Of a DNA stretch of 64,000 nt, positions 37,114 through 49,582 are shown one piece after another; position 1 is the first letter of the stretch; each line of letters starts with the position of its first letter. A model generated the notes under the pieces. That model saw only the letters and a list, made by a program, of their open reading frames with translations, ran no database searches and had not been told where the DNA came from. The position numbers and the translations under genes are program-made. The stretch is from Alphaproteobacteria bacterium UBA2903. GTDB lineage: Bacteria > Pseudomonadota > Alphaproteobacteria > CAAGCB01 > CAG-977. The stretch covers positions 74,812 through 138,811 of the forward strand of contig DEDN01000035.1 of NCBI GenBank assembly GCA_002349565.1, in the 5' to 3' direction.

Positions 37114-38292
37114 ATGAATTTGAACAAGACTTTTATCAATTCCCTGACGTTTGACGGCGTGGAAAAGACTTATTTTGACGACGTTTTAAAAGGTTTCGGA
37201 GTGCGGGTGGGCAAAACGTCCGCAAGCTATATCGTTATGTATCGAAACGTTTACGGCAAGCAAAAGAAAATCACGATTGCCAAGACGACGCAGATCGCTC
37301 CGGCGCAAGCCCGCGACGAAGCCAAGAAAATACTGGCTCTGGTCGTTCAGGGCAAAGATCCCGCTTCCGACAAAATCGAAAAGCGCAAAGAAATGACGGT
37401 CGCCGATCTTGCCGACAAGTTTCTGACCGACCGGAAGCCGCGCATCAAAGCTTCTTCTTTTGCCGTGTATTCGGCTTCCGTCAGAAGTTAGATTTTACCG
37501 GCTTTCGGGAACCGTTTTATCAAGGAGTTGCGCCGCGCCGACGTTCAGAAGTTTTACAACGATATGGTGGGCGGAGCTTATATGGACAGGCGGGGTTATC
37601 CGGCGGATCACAAGTTTGTCGCGGCGGCAAATCACGCGAGAAAGACACTTTGCTCGATGTATGAGTTCGCCATTCGCAACGATTGGGCGGATATGAATCC
37701 GGCAATCAGACTGGACACGCTTTCGACGGCGAAAAGAATGGTCTTCCTTGACGAAAAAGGGTTTGTGAAGTTCGGGAACATTCTTCAAATCAAGCACGAA
37801 CGGGAAGAAACGGTCAGGAGCATTTTTATTTTGTTGGCGTTGACGGGATGTCGCAGAAGCGAGATCACGACGTTGAAGTGGGAATATGTCGATTTTGACA
37901 ATCAGGCGTTTCGCTTTCCGGACACAAAGACGGGAGCGCAAAACCGCCCGTTCGGAAGCGCGGCGAAAAGGTATCTGTTGGCGTTGAAAGAGAAAAGCGG
38001 CGATCCGACGGAAGGATTTCTTTTCAAACCGGCCGTAACGGCGAAGATGCCGGCGTATTTTGCGACGCACGTCAAGCCGGAAATCGGGATAACGGGCTTT
38101 TGCCTGCACGCTTTAAGGCACAGCTTCGCGTCAATGGCGGCGGCGTTGGGATATTCGGACAACATCATCGCGGGATTGTTGGGGCATCACATCAACACGA
38201 TCACGAACCGATACACGCACCTGACGGAAAAGGTCGTCGTTGACGCCGCCAACGTCGTCAGCGAAAAAATCGCGGAATTGATCGGAGTATGA
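37114..38292 (+). pseudogene. int: P4-type tyrosine integrase interrupted by an in-frame TAG at 37489-37491
   Basis: An N-terminal arm-type DNA-binding domain (37114-37488) and a C-terminal catalytic domain (R...HALRHSFAS...Y) lie in the same frame. A single amber codon separates them, between ...SVRS and ILPAFG.... Confidence 0.75.
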
Positions 38293-38350: not shown

Positions 38351-39409
38351 TCATAATGAAATTATACATTCACCCGTTGTGTTATGTTTTTGAATATTTT
38401 TTTTGACGGTTTCCCTGCTTACATTAGCATAGCAATATACGCATAAATGATTGCAGGTATTATACATTCCAATATCTTTGCTGATTATACATCCGCAAGC
38501 GGAACGCTGTCCTTTATCTTTTAAATCTTTATATTCTTTCGGTCTCGAAAATCCCGAAGAAAACAGTGTCGGCTGGGTATCGGGAAGTTTTCCTGTATGC
38601 AGATAATAGATCAATTCTTTGTCTTCCGGGAAAAGCCGTTCCAACAACATACCGTCTATACAACGATTTTTTTCAATTCCGTATTTCATTAAATCAATGT
38701 TTTCAGCACAGGTAGCAAGAGATATTTTCCAACCTTTCTCTTCCCAGGCATCTCTTATTTTTACAAGTCCTTCAACGATTTCTTTGCGTTGAGCTTCCGT
38801 CAATTCGGCCGAACAAACATTTTCCCTTGTAAACATCCCTGTTTCATTGATCATGTTGTTTTGAACTTTACGATAAGCGGCAACATCGGCGAAGCTGAAA
38901 ACAAGTTTATCCGTATATCCTTTTAAGCGATTGCCGATATGCCAGATTTTTTTTAACAAATCGCGGGGCGTCAGTCGAGGCGTAACGATCAAAGGATCAA
39001 AACGCCAGATAACCCGTTCTTTCCCGATCATTTCGGATAATGTCTTAAACGTCTCGATTCTGTCTTCAACGGGTGGAACGTGAGGTTCAAAACCTTCTGA
39101 AACGTAATCATTCAGAGTAACCTGAAAATAGTAGTGGATTCCTCTTTTATCCAATTCCTGCAAATAGGGAATAACCGGCTTAGGATTCTTTGTCCAGAAA
39201 ACGACGGCTTTGCATTTTTTAAACGAAACGTAAGAGGGCTGACGATTGAAAGGATTATACCAAACACAATATCCCTTTTCCAAACGATTGAAAAACCAGG
39301 GCGCATAAAAAGCTGGTATATCTGTGGAACGGCTTGCCGATATGATTACCGGGCACACCGCTTCTTTTTTTTCGCCGGAATCCGTGATAATAAAATCTTT
39401 TTCAATCAT
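38351..39409 (-). CDS. DUF1848-like protein with C-terminal CxxxCxxC (radical-SAM-like) cysteine cluster
   Basis: The AT-rich ORF has the C-terminus SACGCIISKDIGMYNTCNHLCVYCYAN, which contains CNHLCVYC (CxxxCxxC). The start is taken at MIEKDFIITD (ATG 39409), not the track ORF start at 39535. This is the last gene of the five-gene operon. Confidence 0.55.
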   Translation of the reverse strand: MIEKDFIITDSGEKKEAVCPVIISASRSTDIPAFYAPWFFNRLEKGYCVWYNPFNRQPSYVSFKKCKAVVFWTKNPKPVIPYLQELDKRGIHYYFQVTLNDYVSEGFEPHVPPVEDRIETFKTLSEMIGKERVIWRFDPLIVTPRLTPRDLLKKIWHIGNRLKGYTDKLVFSFADVAAYRKVQNNMINETGMFTRENVCSAELTEAQRKEIVEGLVKIRDAWEEKGWKISLATCAENIDLMKYGIEKNRCIDGMLLERLFPEDKELIYYLHTGKLPDTQPTLFSSGFSRPKEYKDLKDKGQRSACGCIISKDIGMYNTCNHLCVYCYANVSRETVKKNIQKHNTTGECIISL

Positions 39410-39431
39410 GATATTTCGATGACAACTCCTC

Positions 39432-40514
39432 TTAAAGTTTTTCCATAAAAGTAAGCTGTTCATTATTATTAGATTTCTTTTCGGTTGATTTTCTTTTTTT
39501 TGTTGAATTCTTTTTTTTCTTCTCTGAATTTTCATTTTCTTTTGATATAGGAGCTGCTATATCTTTTCCAAACAACTGACCGTAGAATTCAGCATAAACG
39601 TCTTTAATGTAATCAAATTGTTCATTCAGAAGAATATCCGTAAAATCCCGTGTCAGATTTGCAAAGCCGGTCAAAAGACCGAACAACGAAAAAGCAATAC
39701 GATAATCTGACATTTTTTGACTTTGCATAAAGTGGAGCAATTTTTCCCAATCGTCTCCCTTTATCAAGACGGCCGCAACTGAAGACAAAAGACCGTTATC
39801 CCATTTCTGGTTGAATTCATCACCTCTGAGATGTCTGCGGAGGCTATTTAAAAACTCACGCGCGTGGGAATTTTCCCATTCTTCGTTGTAAACTTGTTTT
39901 GCCTCTTTTGTTATATCATCGGCCAGATCCGTTTTCTTTTCGTTGATTTTAAAAAACGGTTCGGATTTGCTTAAAATCAGCTGATAAACAGACTTATATA
40001 GTTGCTTTTCTTTTTCAGTTTCAAAAAGTTTTTCTTCTGTCTTTTCAAGTTTATCGTTTATAAAGACAATCTCGCTATCACGCGTATTTAAGAGTTTACG
40101 TTCTGATGAAATTTTATCATTAACGGATTTTATTTCGTTCTGAACCCACCGAAGTGCAGAACAATCATAAGAAACGCCCGATTGAATTTCAGAAAGCACA
40201 TCGTCCAAAAGAACAATGTTTTTTAGCTTATTATGCTTTCTAAGTCCTTTGATTATCTTTTCAATTTGATCATCGTTAAATTCGCCCGATAATTCGGAAT
40301 ACCACGGCTCCATTTGCCGTAAAGAAATGAAGGATGTTTTTAAGTCAGATAATTGAGTCCCCGTTATATTTCTATCGGGCGTTGATACTATGGAAGAAAA
40401 TATATTGTAAATATTTTCTAACAAAGATTTTTTTGGGACGTTTCCAACGATGTTGAAAGTATGGCTCCTATATAATAACCGTAAAGCATTCCTTTTATTT
40501 TGTTTATCCGACAA
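39432..40514 (-). CDS. Hypothetical protein (360 aa), operon member
   Basis: The AT-rich ORF has no recognised domain. Its N-terminus overlaps the upstream ORF by 97 nt in another frame. Confidence 0.5.
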   Translation of the reverse strand: MSDKQNKRNALRLLYRSHTFNIVGNVPKKSLLENIYNIFSSIVSTPDRNITGTQLSDLKTSFISLRQMEPWYSELSGEFNDDQIEKIIKGLRKHNKLKNIVLLDDVLSEIQSGVSYDCSALRWVQNEIKSVNDKISSERKLLNTRDSEIVFINDKLEKTEEKLFETEKEKQLYKSVYQLILSKSEPFFKINEKKTDLADDITKEAKQVYNEEWENSHAREFLNSLRRHLRGDEFNQKWDNGLLSSVAAVLIKGDDWEKLLHFMQSQKMSDYRIAFSLFGLLTGFANLTRDFTDILLNEQFDYIKDVYAEFYGQLFGKDIAAPISKENENSEKKKKNSTKKRKSTEKKSNNNEQLTFMEKL

Positions 40515-41059
40515 TCTTTTGAAACGTCCTCCTCCGAAAGGTTTTTATTCGGATCTTTTTGTAAAGGTTTGTATGTATTTTCCTTATATGTTTCGACCAC
40601 CAGATTCTCCTGATATAGTCGCAACATTTTTGTTTCCAAGCTGGAATCCGAAAGAGATAAGGTTGTTCGTTTGTCTTCTTCCGAGAAAAAAATAAACCGT
40701 GTATTTTCAGGGGTGAGATAGATAGTTTTTTTTGAAATATAGACTCCTTTTTTAACCTTTTGAAAATTTTCATCAGAACAAATTTCAATAAGGAGCGGAT
40801 GATCCTCAACCTCATCATTGTTACGCGTAAAAGAAAAAGGCCCCTCATACAAAACGATGGAATTCTCCAAGGCGTTTTCATTTGTTTTCTGCCATCTGGA
40901 ATATCCGTATCCTCTTTTCTGATAAAACATATAAGGGGAAACAGACTCGGTTGATAAGATATTGTTAAAATTGAGTGTTGATGTCGGAATGTAATAATTT
41001 TTCATCTTATAAATCCTCAATTTCTTCAACTTCGGTTGTTGTATATAGGGTTCTGTCAA
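40418..41059 (-). CDS. Hypothetical protein (about 195-213 aa), operon member
   Basis: The AT-rich ORF has no recognised domain. It overlaps the helicase by 53 nt and the downstream ORF by 97 nt. Confidence 0.45.
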   Translation of the reverse strand: MTEPYIQQPKLKKLRIYKMKNYYIPTSTLNFNNILSTESVSPYMFYQKRGYGYSRWQKTNENALENSIVLYEGPFSFTRNNDEVEDHPLLIEICSDENFQKVKKGVYISKKTIYLTPENTRFIFFSEEDKRTTLSLSDSSLETKMLRLYQENLVVETYKENTYKPLQKDPNKNLSEEDVSKDCRINKIKGMLYGYYIGAILSTSLETSQKNLC

Positions 41060-42068
41060 GTTCCGAAAACAGTTGCGGAAGATTCCCGCTATACATCATA
41101 TATAAATCCCGATAAGTTCTTGTCATCGCAACATACAGAGCCTTCCGTTGAGACATATCCGCACTTTCCAAAAAAGGAATAAAGACCGTTTCAAACTGAA
41201 GACCTTTTGCACTATGGTATGTAAGAAGCTTCGGGTTTGTTGAATTGAAGTTAAGATTATCTGCGCTATTTCTATCAACTTTATAACGCGCCTCATAGTT
41301 TCCGCCCTTTTCTTTCAGTTTTTCGTAAACCAATTTAACATCCGTATTTCGAGGAAGTAAGATGGCAACATCATTTAAATTTCTGTTTTTTATAATCCTA
41401 TGTATCGCATCAATTTGCTCGTCTTTATTTTCGTATTGAATAATACGGGGAAGTTCTTTTTCCGAGCTTTTATAAACGGCATCATCATAAGATGTATCAA
41501 TTCCTATTTGGCACGCTATTTTCGCAACCGGACTTGGCAATCTGTAATTATTATATAAAGGGAAAGGCTTAGGCCTGATTTTTTCCGAAATAAAAGACGG
41601 GATATTTTCTACCGGAACCATTTTTCTGTTTTCCATTCCGTCATAAATTGATTGAGCCGTATCTCCGAAAAAGAAAAAATTTTTCTTTGACGAATTTATA
41701 AATCTTTTAATTTCATCTTCAGTAAAATCCTGAATTTCATCAACAATGATATAATCTGCCGAAGCGCAGTTTTCTTTGTTTTCCCATTCCCAATAATATG
41801 AAAACTCATTTTTTAAGCCAAGAGCTTCGCGACCGGCATTCATATAGCTGCATAATGCCTTTGTAAAAACAATCACTTTGTAATTATTTCCACGTTCTTT
41901 CTGAATTCGTTGAGCTTTAATCAGGGCAAGAACGGATTTTCCGCTTCCGGCACACCCTTGGACAATGCATGATTTATCCAAAGTCGCCGTTAAAACTCTA
42001 ATCTGAGCATCATCAAGTTCAGATTCTTTAATCATCCAGTCTTTTTTCATCGTTTGAAAATCCTCCAA
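41007..42068 (-). CDS. Compact SF1 UvrD-like helicase (AAA_19 + UvrD_C_2 type)
   Basis: A Walker A motif (GCAGSGKS), a Walker B/DExx motif (IIVDEIQD) and a C-terminal motif (TYHSAKGLQFETVFIP) are present. The protein is only 353 aa. Confidence 0.7.
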   Translation of the reverse strand: MEDFQTMKKDWMIKESELDDAQIRVLTATLDKSCIVQGCAGSGKSVLALIKAQRIQKERGNNYKVIVFTKALCSYMNAGREALGLKNEFSYYWEWENKENCASADYIIVDEIQDFTEDEIKRFINSSKKNFFFFGDTAQSIYDGMENRKMVPVENIPSFISEKIRPKPFPLYNNYRLPSPVAKIACQIGIDTSYDDAVYKSSEKELPRIIQYENKDEQIDAIHRIIKNRNLNDVAILLPRNTDVKLVYEKLKEKGGNYEARYKVDRNSADNLNFNSTNPKLLTYHSAKGLQFETVFIPFLESADMSQRKALYVAMTRTYRDLYMMYSGNLPQLFSELDRTLYTTTEVEEIEDL

Positions 42069-42916
42069 GCCACTTTGCTACAATCTTTTTCCTTTTGTGA
42101 ATGTGATACGCAAATAGTTTCACGTCTGTCGCTGTTTCTCCCCATAAGTTCTAAAGACACATGATCGTTAATGTCATCCATCATGGCGTAAATCCATTTA
42201 TCAGAAACGGTATTATGCGATGTAATATCTTCAACGCATATTATTCCTTTGTCGTCAATTTTTGAGGAGAAGCTATTTATAAAGAAAACATATGGATTAT
42301 CACTTCCGAATTGTTTTTTTGTAACGAATTCATTTAACGACTTAAAAGAAACAAAAATGTCAAAAAATTGTTTTATTTCTGACGACATTATATTCATATC
42401 GTATAAATCACTTATTTCGTAAAAGAACGGTTTTAATTCTATGTTTAACAAGCACGTTATTTTAAATTGTGTTATTGTTTTTTCTAAAATCCTGAGAGCA
42501 TTTGCATTCCCATCTAAAGCTAGAATTTTTATTTTGTTCACGGAGGGGAGATTATCCATAACAGCCTGCAATAATCCGAAAACTTCCCCACCAGTTCCGC
42601 ATCCGAAGTCAAAAACAGATAATTTGTTTCTGCCCTCGTATATATGTTTGTTTGATTGAAAAAAGAGATTGAATATACGATAGGCTTCCGCATAACTCCG
42701 TGGAAAATATGTTCCCAGATATTTCAATAACTGGGATTCGTCATAATCCAATGCAACAAGGGGCTTGTATTCCGGGCAATAGGAAGCTTGCAGAGTTTTG
42801 AAAATATATTCATCCAGCCATTCCGGGAGTTTAACAATATTTACCATTTTTTTTTGCTTCCCTGATTGCCATGCTCCAACTATCGATTTTTGATTAGGAT
42901 TGATAATGCTTCCCAA
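42047..42916 (-). CDS. Class I SAM-dependent methyltransferase
   Basis: Motif I is VFDFGCGTGGEV. No clear DPPY/NPPY or C5-MTase motifs are seen, so the substrate is uncertain. This is the first gene of the operon and it overlaps the helicase by 22 nt. Confidence 0.6.
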   Translation of the reverse strand: MGSIINPNQKSIVGAWQSGKQKKMVNIVKLPEWLDEYIFKTLQASYCPEYKPLVALDYDESQLLKYLGTYFPRSYAEAYRIFNLFFQSNKHIYEGRNKLSVFDFGCGTGGEVFGLLQAVMDNLPSVNKIKILALDGNANALRILEKTITQFKITCLLNIELKPFFYEISDLYDMNIMSSEIKQFFDIFVSFKSLNEFVTKKQFGSDNPYVFFINSFSSKIDDKGIICVEDITSHNTVSDKWIYAMMDDINDHVSLELMGRNSDRRETICVSHSQKEKDCSKVAWRIFKR

Positions 42917-43034
42917 TCTAACCTTCGTTAGGTCAGGAAAAATCCAATCCGCAGAAATCGGCGGAATATTTAAAAGGTTGATATTGCCGGAAACGTTTAG
43001 TAAACTTCAGCCTAACGAACGTCAGATTGGGAAA
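42908..43034. repeat. Imperfect 26-bp inverted repeat pair (cttcccaatctaaccttcgttagg / rc ctttcccaatctgacgttcgttagg) flanking a ~66 bp spacer
   Basis: The repeat is read on both strands. One arm overlaps the MTase start codon and the other overlaps the stop codon of the serine recombinase. About 22 of 26 positions match. Confidence 0.6.
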
Positions 43035-43614
43035 GAAACCTGTAAACTGTGCTTTTGCCGACGCCGTGTTTTCTCGCCGTTTGAACGACCGAAAGCCCGT
43101 TTGACAAATCCCTTAGAATCCAGTCTTCTTTCCCGTCAAGAATGTGCTTTTTGTTGCGGCTTCCAGTCGATCGTCCGAGATGTTTTCCCTCGGCTTTCAA
43201 GCGACTCAACGCTTCTTTCATCCTTTGGGAAATCAGCGTCCGTTCGACTTGAGCGACCATAGAAAAAACAAACGCCAATAACTGCGATTGAATATCCTCT
43301 CCCAAGCGGTAGTTTTCTTTGACCGTCCAGACTTGCACCTGTTTCGTCATACAGACGTTCAAAATCGTCATCACGTCCAGAATGTTTCGCCCCAGCCGCG
43401 ACAGTTCCGAACAAACCACGATGTCGCCTTTTTTCAGCTTTTTAAGCGTCCGCCCGATTTTTCTTTTCGCGAAAACGACCGTTCCGCTGATCGTTTCGTT
43501 GATCCATACGTCAACGGGAAAATCCTTGCGCTCAAGGAAACGCTCTATTTCAAATCGCTGATTTTCCGTTGTCTGTTTGTCCGTGCTGACTCTGATATAT
43601 CCGTAAACCGTCAT
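43012..43614 (-). CDS. Serine recombinase (resolvase/invertase family)
   Basis: The N-terminus YGYIRVSTDKQ contains the catalytic Ser. A C-terminal HTH is present and the protein is 200 aa. Confidence 0.85.
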   Translation of the reverse strand: MTVYGYIRVSTDKQTTENQRFEIERFLERKDFPVDVWINETISGTVVFAKRKIGRTLKKLKKGDIVVCSELSRLGRNILDVMTILNVCMTKQVQVWTVKENYRLGEDIQSQLLAFVFSMVAQVERTLISQRMKEALSRLKAEGKHLGRSTGSRNKKHILDGKEDWILRDLSNGLSVVQTARKHGVGKSTVYRFLSQSDVR

Positions 43615-44354
43615 CGTTCGATACCTCTTTCTTTTGAATGTTCTGCGGGCTTGGGACGGTCGGCGGCGGCGCGGGATCGTTTCAGCTGTTCAAGCGTTTT
43701 GTGTTTGCGGGGAATGACGACTTGCGTCAAGGAAAAGTCCCTGTCCCGGAACCGCGTCGCCTGCAATTCAACGCCGAACCGTCTGGCGATTTCGGACTGG
43801 CGCAAGCGCATTTGCTCGATTTCCCGCCGGTTGAACTCCAACCGTTTCAAGCCGTTGTTCAGTTTCAAAATAAAGTGGATGTGTTTGTGCCGTTGATGAC
43901 GGTGCGCGGCGAACACATACGAATATCCGTTTTCGGCGAACGGTCGCATATATTCGGTCGCGAACGCTTCCAAATCCTCCGACGCCATACCGCACCCGTT
44001 CGGGAAAGACACGATAAAATGAATGGCGCACCGCCCGTTCTTGCGTCCGCTTTCCGGTTCTTCGGTCAGCCGTTCTTTGAACTCCTGCGCCGTCAGATGT
44101 GTTTCAGTTTCGTCCGTCAACGTCAGCTTTTCTTCCAAGCCTTTCGACTTTTCCGCGACGTATTCCGCCATAGCGCAAACCGTGCCGATGCTTTTGGCGT
44201 AACCGACTATCTTGAACACCGCTTCAAACGGACGGGAACGGGACAGGCTGATAAAGTGCTTTTGTAAAGGCTCGTAATGAAAGGGCAGTCCCGGACGCTC
44301 CCGCCGGATGCCGCGGATATGCTCGTCAAGCCAATCGTGTTTGCGTTTAACCAT
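43611..44354 (-). CDS. Mobilisation relaxase (MobA/VirD2-like relaxase domain)
   Basis: A histidine triad (AAHRHQRHKHIHFIL) is typical of the relaxase HxDxxHxHxH motif. The gene overlaps mobC and the resolvase. Confidence 0.6.
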   Translation of the reverse strand: MVKRKHDWLDEHIRGIRRERPGLPFHYEPLQKHFISLSRSRPFEAVFKIVGYAKSIGTVCAMAEYVAEKSKGLEEKLTLTDETETHLTAQEFKERLTEEPESGRKNGRCAIHFIVSFPNGCGMASEDLEAFATEYMRPFAENGYSYVFAAHRHQRHKHIHFILKLNNGLKRLEFNRREIEQMRLRQSEIARRFGVELQATRFRDRDFSLTQVVIPRKHKTLEQLKRSRAAADRPKPAEHSKERGIER

Positions 44355-44658
44355 AGTAATACCTCAACAGCCGGACAATCTTTTCCCGCAAAAGCGCAAG
44401 ACGTTCCAAGTGTTCTTTGATGTTTTCCGCTTCCGCTCCGCCGTTCAACGCGCGGGCGATCTGGTTCAGATTGACGCCGATCCGGCGCAGTTCCTCGCGG
44501 ATTTCCGTCAGCTTTTCGATTTCTTTCGTCCCCGGAGCGTTCGCTTTCGCCAATCCCGCCGCGATGAATCTGCGGGCGACGCCCGACGGGTTGTCAAACC
44601 TGTCGAGCATCGCTTTGTGTTCGGGTGGCAATCGTAAAGCGATCTTCACTTTCGCCAT
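44347..44658 (-). CDS. mobC: Mobilisation protein MobC (relaxosome accessory, RHH)
   Basis: The sequence MAKVKIALRLPPEHKAMLDRF...IGVNLNQIARALN is characteristic of MobC. The start is taken at ATG 44658 and the protein is 103 aa. Confidence 0.75.
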   Translation of the reverse strand: MAKVKIALRLPPEHKAMLDRFDNPSGVARRFIAAGLAKANAPGTKEIEKLTEIREELRRIGVNLNQIARALNGGAEAENIKEHLERLALLREKIVRLLRYYYG

Positions 44659-45322: not shown

Positions 45323-46259
45323 ATGGTTGAAAACGAACGCACGGAATACAAAGAAAAACTGACTGCCGCTTTGGAAAAGGAAGCGGTGGCGTTTCTGAAC
45401 GCGCACGGCGGAACGATCTATATCGGCATTGACAAGAACGGGAATCCCGTCGGCGTTGACAAGTGCGACGCGCTTCAACTGGAAATCAAAGACCGCCTGA
45501 TAACGGGGATTCGTCCGTCCGTTATGGGCTTGTTTGACATTGCCGGCGAACGTCTGAACGGATCGGGACGTTTTGACGGAAAATAAGAACTTCGGATATT
45601 GCTCTTTAATCAAGGCGACCGAACAGGTCTTGGACAAGTTTTTCGTTGAAAACAGGATTTACGCTCGCGTAACGGCAACCAAGCGCGAAGAACGCCCGAT
45701 GGTCGATCCGCAAGCATTAAGAGAAGCGGTCATTAACGCGATACTGCATAACGATTATTCATACAACAATCCGCCGAAGTTCGAAATGTTTTCGGACAGA
45801 ATAGAGATCACGTCAACGGGCGGCTTGCCGTGGGGAATGACGAAAGAAGACTTTTTCAACGGCAAGTCGTGTCCGCGCAATCCCGAATTGATGAGAATTT
45901 TTCAGGATATGGAACTGGTCGAGCGTCTTGGGTCGGGCGTGCGGCGGATTTTGAACGCTTACGCGCCGGACGTGTTCGAGATTTCGGACACTTTCTTCCG
46001 CGTAACGTTCCGCTATAACAAGCCGTTTGCCGAAGCGGACGATAAAGCCGGAGAGAAAAACAGGGAAAAAACTACCCAAAAAACTACCCAAAAAATCTTG
46101 GACGCAATCAGGAAGAATCCGCAGATCAGCCGTCAGGAACTGGCGGAAATCGTCGGTATTTCCGAAAGCGGCATTAAATGGCAGCTGAAAAAGATGAAAG
46201 ACGAAGGCATCATTGAGCGCGTCGGTTCTCTCAAAGGCGGCAAGTGGGTGGTAAAGTAA
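45323..46259 (+). pseudogene. AlbA_2 + HATPase_c_4 + HTH regulator, split by frameshift/deletion
   Basis: An N-terminal AlbA_2 (divergent AAA) fragment (45323-45586; FLNAHGGTIYIGIDKNG) is followed in another frame by the HATPase_c_4 and winged-HTH part (45573-46259). The full-length family is usually a single protein of about 400-480 aa. Confidence 0.6.
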
Positions 46260-47475: not shown

Positions 47476-48564
47476 ATGTCGATAAAAGATCGTATGGTTG
47501 AACGGATGATGAAAAACTATCCTATCTTAAATAGAAAATATAGAGAGCTTCATTACGTCAACTTTTTGAAATATTTGGAAGATTTTTCAAAAAAAGAATT
47601 TAGTGAAAGTGGAAGAGAATATTATGCGAAATCTTTTCTATTTGATTGCTATATAGAGGCGGAAAAACGGTCTATACGTATAGAATCAGAAAACCGTAAA
47701 GAAGAAAAACGTAGAGAAGAAGAAATACGTAAAAAAGAAGCTGACGAGTTTGAAAAATATGTAATTTCTGAAATGGTAAAACATTATGCTGTTTTGAGAA
47801 CAAAGTTCAGTAGAGCGAAAGTGGTTGATGAATATGGAATTGAAACTTTTAATGAAGAACAGTTTGATGAAGATTTAAAGTATTTTGTTAGAAACGTTTT
47901 GAAAGAAAATAAAAATATGCCACAAGCGTTTTTCTTTCATTGCTTTGAACAAGCAAAAGAAGTTGCAGAAAAGGAATTTGATGAGTTCGAAAAATATGTA
48001 ATTTCTGAAATGGTAAAACATTATGCTGTTTTGAAAACGAAGTTTAATAGAGCAAATGTTGTTGATGAATATGGAATTGAAACTTTCAACGAAGAACAGT
48101 TTGATGAAGATTTAAAGTATTTTGTTAGAAAAGTTTTGAGAGAAAATAAGAATATGCCGCAAGAGTTTTTCTTCCGTTGCTTTGAAAAAGCAAAAGAAGT
48201 TGCGGAAATTGATTTTAATGTATCGAATATTCAAACAGGCGAAGATTATGAACGGTTTGTTCGTGAACTTTGCGTATCAGCCGGTTTTGAATGTGGAATG
48301 ACACCGAAAACGGGTGATCAGGGTGTTGATTTAATTGTCAGAAAAGACCGGACTCATATCGCGATACAGTGTAAATTCTATTCAAGTCTTATCGGAAATG
48401 CCGCAGTTCAGGAAGTCATCGCGGGACAGAAATTTTATAATTGCGATTATGCGTGCGTCGTTTCCAATCAAGATTATACCGATTCCGCGAGAAAACTGGC
48501 AAATGCGGCTGATGTTAAATTGTTATCACACGAAACATTGATTCCGTATCTGCAAAAACTGTGA
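47476..48564 (+). CDS. Mrr-like restriction endonuclease (C-terminal Mrr_cat domain) with duplicated N-terminal module
   Basis: The C-terminus, GDQGVDLIV...IAIQCKFYS...VGNAAVQEV, matches the Mrr catalytic D...QxK pattern. The N-terminal half contains two copies of an 80-aa unit. Confidence 0.6.
   Translation: MSIKDRMVERMMKNYPILNRKYRELHYVNFLKYLEDFSKKEFSESGREYYAKSFLFDCYIEAEKRSIRIESENRKEEKRREEEIRKKEADEFEKYVISEMVKHYAVLRTKFSRAKVVDEYGIETFNEEQFDEDLKYFVRNVLKENKNMPQAFFFHCFEQAKEVAEKEFDEFEKYVISEMVKHYAVLKTKFNRANVVDEYGIETFNEEQFDEDLKYFVRKVLRENKNMPQEFFFRCFEKAKEVAEIDFNVSNIQTGEDYERFVRELCVSAGFECGMTPKTGDQGVDLIVRKDRTHIAIQCKFYSSLIGNAAVQEVIAGQKFYNCDYACVVSNQDYTDSARKLANAADVKLLSHETLIPYLQKL
47746..48219 (+). repeat. 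Direct tandem duplication, 2 x 237 bp (~90% identical), inside the Mrr-like gene
   Basis: The unit EFEKYVISEMVKHYAVL(R/K)TKF...KEVAE is seen twice in both the DNA and the protein. Confidence 0.8.
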
Positions 48565-49321: not shown

Positions 49322-49396
49322 TGGCTGGGGAACCTGGACTCGAACCAAGACTAACTGAGTCAAAGTCCGTTGCCTTACCGCTTGGCTACGTCCCAA
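49322..49396 (-). tRNA. tRNA-Gln (anticodon TTG)-like, with imperfect acceptor and anticodon stems; island boundary
   Basis: The reverse complement reads TTGGGACGTAGCCAAGCGGTAAGGCAACGGACTTTGACTCAGTTAGTCTTGGTTCGAGTCCAGGTTCCCCAGCCA. The D-arm, the anticodon loop CTTTGAC, the T-arm and the CCA end are canonical. The 5' acceptor strand mismatches the 3' strand at two or more positions, and the anticodon stem has one mismatch. Confidence 0.55.
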
Positions 49397-49505
49397 CGAC
49401 AATAAGATAAGTAATCTGTTTTTAAGGGCTTAGTCAAGTAATTTATGCACGCTTTAAATTTTAATTGTTTTTTTTATCAAATCGGGTATTGTGTGCTTTA
49501 CAGAC

Positions 49506-49582
49506 GCGCCCGTAGCTCAGCTGGATAGAGTATCGGCCTCCGAAGCCGAGGGTCGTGGTTTCGAATCCCGCCGGGCGCACCA
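49506..49582 (+). tRNA. tRNA-Arg (anticodon CCG)
   Basis: The sequence GCGCCCGTAGCTCAGCTGGATAGAG...CCTCCGAAGCC...TTCGAATCC...CGGGCGCACCA has a 7-bp acceptor, an anticodon loop CTCCGAA, and is 77 nt long, like E. coli argX. Confidence 0.85.

Follow-up and report, generated by a model that had tools for sequence, protein, structure and literature searches.

What does the AT-rich block on the minus strand at positions 38351-42916 of a 64,000-nt stretch of Alphaproteobacteria bacterium UBA2903 (contig DEDN01000035.1; hereafter the window) encode, and what might its products do together? The open reading frame (ORF) list of the window holds five ORFs here, all in the same direction. An initial annotation had read them as a translationally coupled five-gene operon with two domain-less middle proteins and had proposed a modification-dependent immunity based on methylation and Fe-S chemistry. 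We find four genes, encoding a class I S-adenosylmethionine (SAM)-dependent methyltransferase (MTase), a superfamily 1 (SF1) helicase, a fusion protein with DarT-like and ADP-ribosylglycohydrolase (ARH)-like folds and a DUF1848 protein (Table 1), and this cassette is a conserved, horizontally mobile module. That it is a mobile conflict module, directed against phages or other mobile genetic elements (MGEs) and working by helicase-coupled, NAD+-dependent ADP-ribosylation of nucleic acids, we put at about even odds (a probability of roughly 0.5); our confidence in the single roles of the components is clearly lower than in this overall reading.

Gene content and conservation of the cassette

The two middle ORFs, C (40418-41059) and D (39432-40514), together make up a single gene. 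Proteins homologous to ORF D have 524-770 amino acids and cover ORF C as well, and contig L001, which shares 96.5% DNA identity with the window, encodes a single fusion protein (524 amino acids, compared with 627-770 in most relatives). The BLAST alignment and the sequences themselves reveal a 1-nt deletion in an A-run, L001 reading GGAAAACG where the window reads GGAAACG, and the upstream frame consequently ends at a stop codon at 40418-40420. The split allele was called identically on at least nine contigs from at least five metagenome samples among those listed, and the frameshift is therefore not an assembly error. It is also recent, since putting the missing base back gives an uninterrupted frame of 524 codons with a ratio of non-synonymous to synonymous substitution rates (dN/dS) of 0.19 against L001. 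Just downstream of the frameshift, at 40431-40437, the window carries a C followed by seven A residues, where the intact allele of L001 has an A8 homopolymer; a tract of that length could itself slip, and frame switching at this position might recur.

The overlaps of 22, 53 and 97 nt that had been taken for translational coupling have other origins. The first two are artefacts of choosing the longest ORF, and the third is the frameshift itself; the initial annotation had named frameshift errors as a finding that would undo its reading, and at this junction a frameshift is what we found. With the start codons used by relatives, the MTase and helicase genes overlap by 4 nt (ATGA), the helicase and fusion genes are separated by a gap of 1 nt, and the 22-nt gap between the fusion gene and the DUF1848 gene holds a GAGGAG ribosome-binding site. 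The ATG at 42847 agrees with the start of the MTase genes, of 266 amino acids, in L003 and L061-L063. A C-terminal domain of ~95 amino acids, present in most members of the fusion family, is missing from the lineage to which the window and L001 belong, and the fusion gene is also disrupted in L051, L052, L054 and L055. The window copy of the cassette as a whole is probably non-functional, judging from its sequence.

One genome per GTDB species was scanned with a profile of the fusion protein, yielding 57 loci, and phmmer placed the MTase, helicase, fusion and DUF1848 genes in this order on one strand in almost all loci whose flanks were long enough. Co-occurrence across genomes, which the initial annotation had suggested checking, is hence very strong for the four genes. 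The same cassette was reached when starting from two DUF1848 homologues, and no conserved fifth gene was found when the 479 flanking genes were clustered, no family occurring in more than six loci. Purifying selection acts on each of the four (dN/dS 0.08-0.24). The hosts are mostly Bacteroidales from the gut, rumen and mouth (Segatella, Prevotella, Bacteroides, Phocaeicola, Parabacteroides, Muribaculaceae and Paludibacteraceae), the others being Desulfovibrio, Kiritimatiellia, a Clostridium metagenome-assembled genome (MAG), Chryseobacterium and an alphaproteobacterial MAG. The plasmid collection yielded nothing homologous to the fusion protein, the single match in the phage collection was an unverified faecal scaffold (L074), and IMG/VR contained one locus. 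We found no description of this architecture in the literature searched for DUF1848 and for DarT/ARH/helicase combinations, a search that left many subscription papers outside. In Desulfovibrio sp. ZJ369 (L018, 4155-10220) a second, partial DUF1848 ORF lies between the MTase and helicase genes, with a full DUF1848 gene at the end of the cassette.

The composition of the window locus had been given as 33% GC in a 55% GC chromosome, which is roughly right: we measured 35.8% for the operon (34-39% for single genes) and 52.8% for window positions 1-36500, the whole window having 48.8%. The integrase, recombinase and relaxase genes of the surrounding island have a host-like GC content of 47-54%, and the cassette thus looks like low-GC cargo in a host-adapted mobilisable island.

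Table 1. Position of the cassette genes and of neighbouring features in the 64,000-nt window
Feature	Position	Strand	Product or remark
Gene 1, class I SAM-dependent MTase	42047-42847	-	266 aa
Gene 2, compact SF1 (UvrD-like) helicase	41007-42050	-	347 aa
Gene 3, DarT-like/ARH-like fusion gene, disrupted in window	39432-41005	-	195-aa + 293-aa products
Frameshift site in gene 3	40441-40443	-	AAA in window, AAAA in intact allele
Gene 4, DUF1848 protein, radical-SAM-like	38351-39409	-	352 aa
Candidate invertible promoter switch	42910-43033		arms 42910-42932 and 43011-43033
Serine recombinase (resolvase/invertase family)	43012-43614	-	200 aa; Pfam Resolvase 1.4e-32 and HTH
Island tyrosine integrase, pseudogene	37114-38292	+	TAG at codon 126; Pfam domains known for L001 copy
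MobA/VirD2 relaxase (mobilisation)	43611-44354	-	247 aa; Pfam
MobC (mobilisation)	44347-44658	-	Pfam
Mrr_cat restriction-endonuclease-domain protein	47476-48564	+	Pfam Mrr_cat 7.8e-23; PADLOC ZorD Mrr-like nuclease region

Domain content of the four proteins

Domain-less as its halves had seemed, the product of gene 3 is read in the fold search as an N-terminal DarT-like ADP-ribosyltransferase (ART)-fold domain, a helical linker and an ARH-like domain. At the level of the fold, the C-terminal part has the all-alpha architecture of ARHs, and two ART-ARH toxin-immunity pairs (8za7 and 6dre) are among the structural matches. Foldseek against the PDB ranked ARH and DraG first, with weak E-values, and did not recover DarT. 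The N-terminal 135 residues are strongly conserved (YIPTSTLNFNNILSSESISP ... EDHP ... TIYL ... LS.S.SS.ETK), and we assign them to the predicted beta/alpha domain of the DarT-like match. Conserved residues of this domain include T7, N11, R30, E66/H68 and E123 (P0005 numbering). The ARH-like part corresponds to the helical region from residue ~160 to 480, which starts at KG.LYGYYIGA and contains NGLLSSIAAV..KGDDWE...DYR...GFANLTRDFTD. Neither half of the gene gave a meaningful match in Pfam, PADLOC or NCBIfam, including DUF4433 and PF03747, and the protein does not belong to the DarT family (Pfam DUF4433) with its catalytic ARTT glutamate. The family comprises 583 clusters at 50% identity, usually 700-770 amino acids long, and is the least conserved component of the cassette (35-48% identity). 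With such a DarT-like/ARH-like core, the likely chemistry shifts from methylation plus Fe-S to ADP-ribosylation. The original proposal taken as a whole is scarcely credible: its five ORFs, motifs and low GC content exist as described, yet the middle ORFs are one frameshifted gene, the overlaps reflect ORF choice and the middle protein carries the two folds. Its core idea, that helicase, MTase and radical-SAM enzyme act in modification-dependent immunity, may hold but is not the best-supported version.

A module for RNA modification or repair would share out the same domains differently, pairing a Tpt1/KptA-like phosphotransferase, and an ARH-like domain for the processing of ADP-ribose products, with a helicase, an MTase and a radical-SAM enzyme specific for RNA. 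The targets would be tRNA or rRNA, and one role could be to counter ribotoxins; we regard this as unlikely.

Gene 2 encodes, judging from its motifs, a minimal SF1 UvrD-like helicase. It exceeds the Pfam cut-offs for Viral_helicase1 (7e-15), UvrD_C_2, UvrD_C and AAA_19 and carries the SF1 motifs GCAGSGKS (Walker A), VDEIQD (DExx) and YHSAKGLQFE. Its matches to the PADLOC models of the GajB, AbiO and Nhi helicases (1e-13 to 1e-17) are generic. All the motifs listed in the initial annotation (these three, VFDFGCGTGG of the MTase and CNHLCVYC of DUF1848) are present in ORFs of the window.

The DUF1848 protein is the most conserved component, with ~70% identity between the window and Bacteroidales. 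Near its C-terminus, the cysteines C305-G-C307 ... C319-x3-C323-x2-C326 are invariant in 27 homologues and include the CxxxCxxC [4Fe-4S] motif of radical-SAM enzymes, for which a C-terminal position is atypical. There was no match to PF04055 and a sequence search of the PDB gave no result; several close homologues bear the JGI label 'DNA repair photolyase'. DUF1848 is a probable circularly permuted radical-SAM enzyme resembling spore photoproduct lyase, and the radical-SAM-like character ascribed to it at the outset is consistent with the fold search. In spore photoproduct lyase and the PA0069 family (COG1533) the cluster motif is N-terminal, whereas in DUF1848 it is C-terminal, an apparent circular permutation accompanied by the lack of PF04055. 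With more than 7,900 close homologues from a single search, DUF1848 is a very large family, and it is also found beside defence-type reverse transcriptases (RTs); the window protein matches the PADLOC model of RT-associated DUF1848 at 4.9e-39.

The MTase family (n=412 homologues, 262-302 amino acids) is defined by the motifs YLGTYFPRSYAE, FDFGCGTGGE, ALDGN, IDDFYD and SFKAICEF, invariant in the alignment. Pfam gave weak matches to CheR and Methyltransf_31, all under the cut-offs, and the family profile retrieved nothing significant from the PDB. No DPPY/NPPY or PC catalytic motif occurs in the 32-member alignment, where the motif-IV region reads SFKAICEF. The sole PADLOC match of the MTase is to mad2 (E 0.0021 over 64 residues), with none to the PglX or DrmMI/II models, and the family does not fit the DNA MTases of restriction-modification, BREX, DISARM or MADS systems.

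Neighbourhoods, mechanism and alternatives

Several features are hallmarks of conflict systems and support the reading of the cassette as a conflict module, namely its MGE genes, its PDC-S02, PDC-M01 and Mrr neighbours, accessory NERD and weak HEPN-like domains, variable genes inserted within it, patchy distribution across phyla, repeated disruption of a core gene and the known pairing of DUF1848 and UvrD-like helicases with the MTase-RT fusions UG25 and UG35. The recombinase, relaxase and Mrr-like nuclease noted from the outset were all found: the neighbours in the window encode a serine recombinase, a tyrosine integrase, MobC, part of a MobA/VirD2 relaxase and an Mrr_cat nuclease. Integrases or relaxases adjoin the cassette in the window, L001, L074, L025, L011 and L022. 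Recurring neighbours in relatives are YhcG/DUF1016 nucleases (PADLOC PDC-S02), AlbA_2/HATPase_c_4 proteins, relaxases and integrases, and a PDC-M01 pair (PtuA-like ATPase and HNH) lies near the cassette in L074.

In L024, L056, L007 and L070 the cassette has a genuine ARH gene (PF03747) as a neighbour. In a fifth case (L049, 7126-9818), an ARH gene stands directly upstream of a solo 606-amino-acid fusion homologue with no MTase, helicase or DUF1848 gene, and three co-directional genes of no known kind precede the pair; this arrangement may be a different system built on the fusion protein. By our own estimate, which assumes few ARHs per genome, five ARH cases in ~60 loci are far above chance, and these recurrent neighbours lend independent support to an ADP-ribose theme.

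A number of observations weigh against the conflict reading based on ADP-ribosylation. In hhalign, the fusion family was not significantly similar to the genuine neighbouring ARHs (E 0.24), and the GGDTDT metal motif of the latter lay opposite QKMSDY, with one Asp kept. The ARH-like domain has no GGDxDT motif of the di-metal site, and its hydrolase site looks degenerate. The beta-1 histidine of the H-Y-E triad of DarT appears to be an isoleucine in the fusion family. DNA self-marking by the MTase is speculative, as the protein has no catalytic motif of DNA MTases. Many flanking genes are ordinary housekeeping genes, and the defence-island signal, which the initial annotation had proposed to check, is present but moderate as judged from the neighbours.

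If the cassette is such a module, the helicase would load on target or invading DNA and expose single strands, on which the DarT-like domain would ADP-ribosylate bases and so block replication. DarT enzymes act on single-stranded DNA (PMC11543638), which would make an obligately coupled SF1 helicase a natural supplier of their substrate on invading DNA. Because its metal site appears degenerate, the fused ARH-like domain would probably bind ADP-ribose, or restrain or gate the transferase, rather than hydrolyse efficiently, and the separate genuine ARH present in some loci would undo this modification of self DNA. The MTase and DUF1848 might form a SAM-dependent arm that either marks self nucleic acid or matures, processes or repairs the adduct, the part of the mechanism that we hold with least certainty. 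Among MTase-RT fusions, UG25 is partnered by DUF1848 and UG35 by a UvrD-like helicase (PMC9226505), pairings that suggest a reusable module for marking or processing nucleic acids.

A multi-step hypermodification of element or host DNA was also considered, in which transferase, trimming hydrolase, radical-SAM enzyme and MTase would jointly build a complex base modification, with the helicase giving access and protection from restriction as the benefit. Four different chemistries in one operon with no nuclease recall multi-step base-modification pathways, the ~70% identity of DUF1848 across phyla would befit a biosynthetic enzyme, and the cassette travels on mobilisable elements. The fusion protein, however, is both the fastest-evolving (35-48% identity) and the most often disrupted component, a pattern of toxic or specificity components; the NERD and HEPN-like accessories and the defence-candidate neighbours point to conflict, and the ARH-like active site looks degenerate. 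We judge this explanation improbable.

The cassette could instead be addiction cargo of the toxin-antitoxin kind, or counter-defence cargo, of integrative mobilisable elements, with an ART toxin held in cis by the ARH-like domain, that stabilises the element or disarms host functions rather than protecting the host. The ART-ARH toxin-immunity pairs among the structural matches, the solo fusion homologue downstream of a genuine ARH in L049, the association with integrases and relaxases and an expression that may be phase-variable are in line with this. A simple toxin-antitoxin system, however, needs no strictly co-conserved helicase, MTase and radical-SAM enzyme, many loci have no recognizable MGE gene within 8 kb, and plasmids and phages hardly ever carry the cassette, and we consider such a role quite unlikely.

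Returning to the ADP-ribosylating conflict module, its closest counterpart in working is DarTG, of which it is not a member; the cassette has no sequence match to DUF4433. DarTG consists of two genes with a DarG macrodomain or NADAR antitoxin, whereas the cassette has four, with an obligate helicase, MTase and DUF1848, and its presumed reversing module has an ARH fold, is fused and bears a degenerate metal site where that of DarTG is separate; neither a macrodomain nor NADAR occurs in the cassette or among the 25 Pfam families found most often in 147 flanking genes. Tre1-Tri1 of Serratia (6dre), the Listeria Lmo0067 pair (8za7) and DraT/DraG act on proteins, as secreted effector/immunity or regulatory pairs, in contrast to the cassette, which joins both folds in one polypeptide, with a predicted transferase of the DarT (nucleic-acid) type, and couples them to the helicase, the MTase and the radical-SAM-like DUF1848. 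The class 1 UG/Abi RT systems UG25 and UG35 (Mestre et al. 2022, PMC9226505) share the accessory DUF1848 and UvrD-like helicase with the cassette, but their core is an RT, which occurs neither in nor near the cassette nor as a domain of its four proteins; the cassette MTase matches no PADLOC RT model, and a DarT-like/ARH-like protein is unreported in UG25/UG35. The resemblance to Gabija, Nhi and AbiO covers the generic SF1 core of the helicase only, which has 347 amino acids as against ~470-650 in those systems, and there is no GajA/OLD nuclease or Nhi nuclease domain.

Searches of PADLOC 2.0, Pfam and NCBIfam matched no named defence or housekeeping system, in agreement with the initial annotation. 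Its exclusion of BREX, DISARM, Dnd, Ssp, Dpd, Gabija and Hachiman stood as well, PADLOC matching only the generic helicase core, and gene content rules out BREX, DISARM, MADS, Dnd, Ssp, Dpd, Gabija, Nhi and AbiO. The ARG-centred systems of Iyer et al. 2022 (PMC9503650) differ from the cassette in architecture. We place the cassette with defence-type cassettes using DarT-like chemistry and SF1 helicases, and see a reasonable chance of a new mechanism.

Tentatively, and with more doubt than confidence, one may go further and see here a widespread, so far unrecognised immune system of Bacteroidales in the human and animal gut, in which the helicase feeds invader single-stranded DNA to the DarT-like transferase, with DUF1848 (as a circularly permuted, photoproduct-lyase-like radical-SAM enzyme) and the non-canonical MTase performing new chemistry on nucleic acid that is ADP-ribosylated or marked in another way. 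If true, this would be a new enzymatic logic of self/non-self discrimination and a first function for the DUF1848 family, which has no assigned function in the sources searched; any immune role of the cassette would suggest one. A working immune module would represent a gut-bacterial ADP-ribosylation defence differing in architecture from DarTG and would bear on phage therapy and phage-host dynamics in Bacteroidales microbiomes. Cultured gut and oral isolates carrying the cassette include Segatella copri, Prevotella jejuni DSM 26989 (L011), Parabacteroides acidifaciens (strain 426-9, L023), Phocaeicola coprophilus and Mediterranea massiliensis; the locus of S. copri F3-48 (L008) has no MTase gene.

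The flanks of the cassette vary and often hold genes of mobile elements or candidate defence genes, and several loci have variable extra genes inserted between the fusion gene and the DUF1848 gene. A NERD nuclease-related domain (1e-7) in L058 (5128-6130) and a weak Swt1-type HEPN match (1.4e-3, below the Pfam cut-off) in L012 (2108-2900) are in frame with the MTase or directly precede it. Both are variant cassettes that may have extra nuclease domains. The AlbA_2/HATPase_c_4 family stands beside the cassette in L008, L011, L012, L015, L017, L022 and L074. The last of these (MT835661.1, 4790-18741), deposited as 'UNVERIFIED Bacteriophage sp.', encodes an integrase and an AlbA_2-like protein besides the full cassette and the PDC-M01 pair. 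None of its ten tested ORFs is a phage structural gene, and it resembles an integrative defence island rather than a phage.

The candidate promoter switch and the island of the window

Between the stop codon of the recombinase gene and the start of the MTase gene lies a 78-nt segment flanked by 23-nt inverted repeats that are 91% complementary. This segment holds the region's only sigma-70-like promoter match (TTGATA-17-TAAACT, plus strand, 42978-43006), which points outward from the operon, and, on the operon (minus) strand, a terminator-like hairpin at 42965-42948. In L003, of a lineage 80% identical, both arms and the 78-nt distance between them are conserved and the sequence in between has diverged. 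A promoter-like site there (TTGCCA-17-TATGTT, extended -10 TG) occupies the same place and has the same outward direction. The adjacent serine recombinase, whose 90% cluster has a member named 'master DNA invertase Mpi family serine-type recombinase' by NCBI, is the probable invertase of the switch, and an adjacent serine invertase with inverted repeats around a promoter-bearing segment is the layout of a phase switch. Two independent contigs, L068 and L069, stop exactly at the inner edge of a repeat arm, as would be expected of an assembly where the reads branch into two continuations. Cassette expression in the window lineage is, on these grounds, probably phase-variable through an Mpi-type invertible promoter, and we read the assembled orientation as OFF. 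Set against this, all full-length contigs have one orientation, the inverted state not being among them. The JGI metagenome contigs, the one collection scanned, are uninformative on this point: they gave 0 matches for the inverted and for the native junction alike, the locus being absent there.

The likeness to the Mpi-controlled promoters of Bacteroides fragilis lies in an Mpi-family invertase beside a short promoter-like segment flanked by ~23-nt repeats. The window segment is unusually short by comparison, with 78 nt between the arms; its host appears to be a gut alphaproteobacterial lineage, its inversion is a prediction from sequence, and its cargo is a candidate defence cassette whereas that in Bacteroides is a polysaccharide locus. 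A putative Mpi repeat core, ARACGTWCGT, resembles GACGTTCGT in the window arm; this likeness is not used here as evidence. Inverted repeats also occur upstream of the cassette in L020, L023, L029 and L033 (Bacteroidales), with a sequence unrelated to the window switch.

The island carrying the window copy is probably a decaying remnant, and it is probably immobilised since its integrase has an in-frame TAG at 37489-37491, a codon that specifies Gln in the intact L001 copy. The window relaxase is also probably truncated: it has 247 amino acids here and in L066 (an identical contig), compared with 375 in L067, which has an identical recombinase. What the window itself holds may thus be described as a decaying cassette on an immobilised island, in which two annotated 'genes' are one broken gene. 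A Schlafen-AlbA_2/HATPase_c_4/HTH gene at 45323-46259 is likewise split, into ORFs of 87 and 228 amino acids (intact relatives have ~510-560), and the PADLOC matches of this family are pAgo-associated models. No att-type direct repeats were found between the integrase end and tRNA-Gln; the divergent tRNA-Gln(ttg) and tRNA-Arg(ccg) genes at 49322-49582 mark the right edge of the low-GC island region. The Mrr_cat gene is a neighbour outside the cassette, held in a second AT-rich cargo block (46.5-48.6 kb, 34% GC), and the N-terminal part of this gene, whose product has 362 amino acids, contains a tandem 237-nt duplication (47715-48188) with copies 87% identical.

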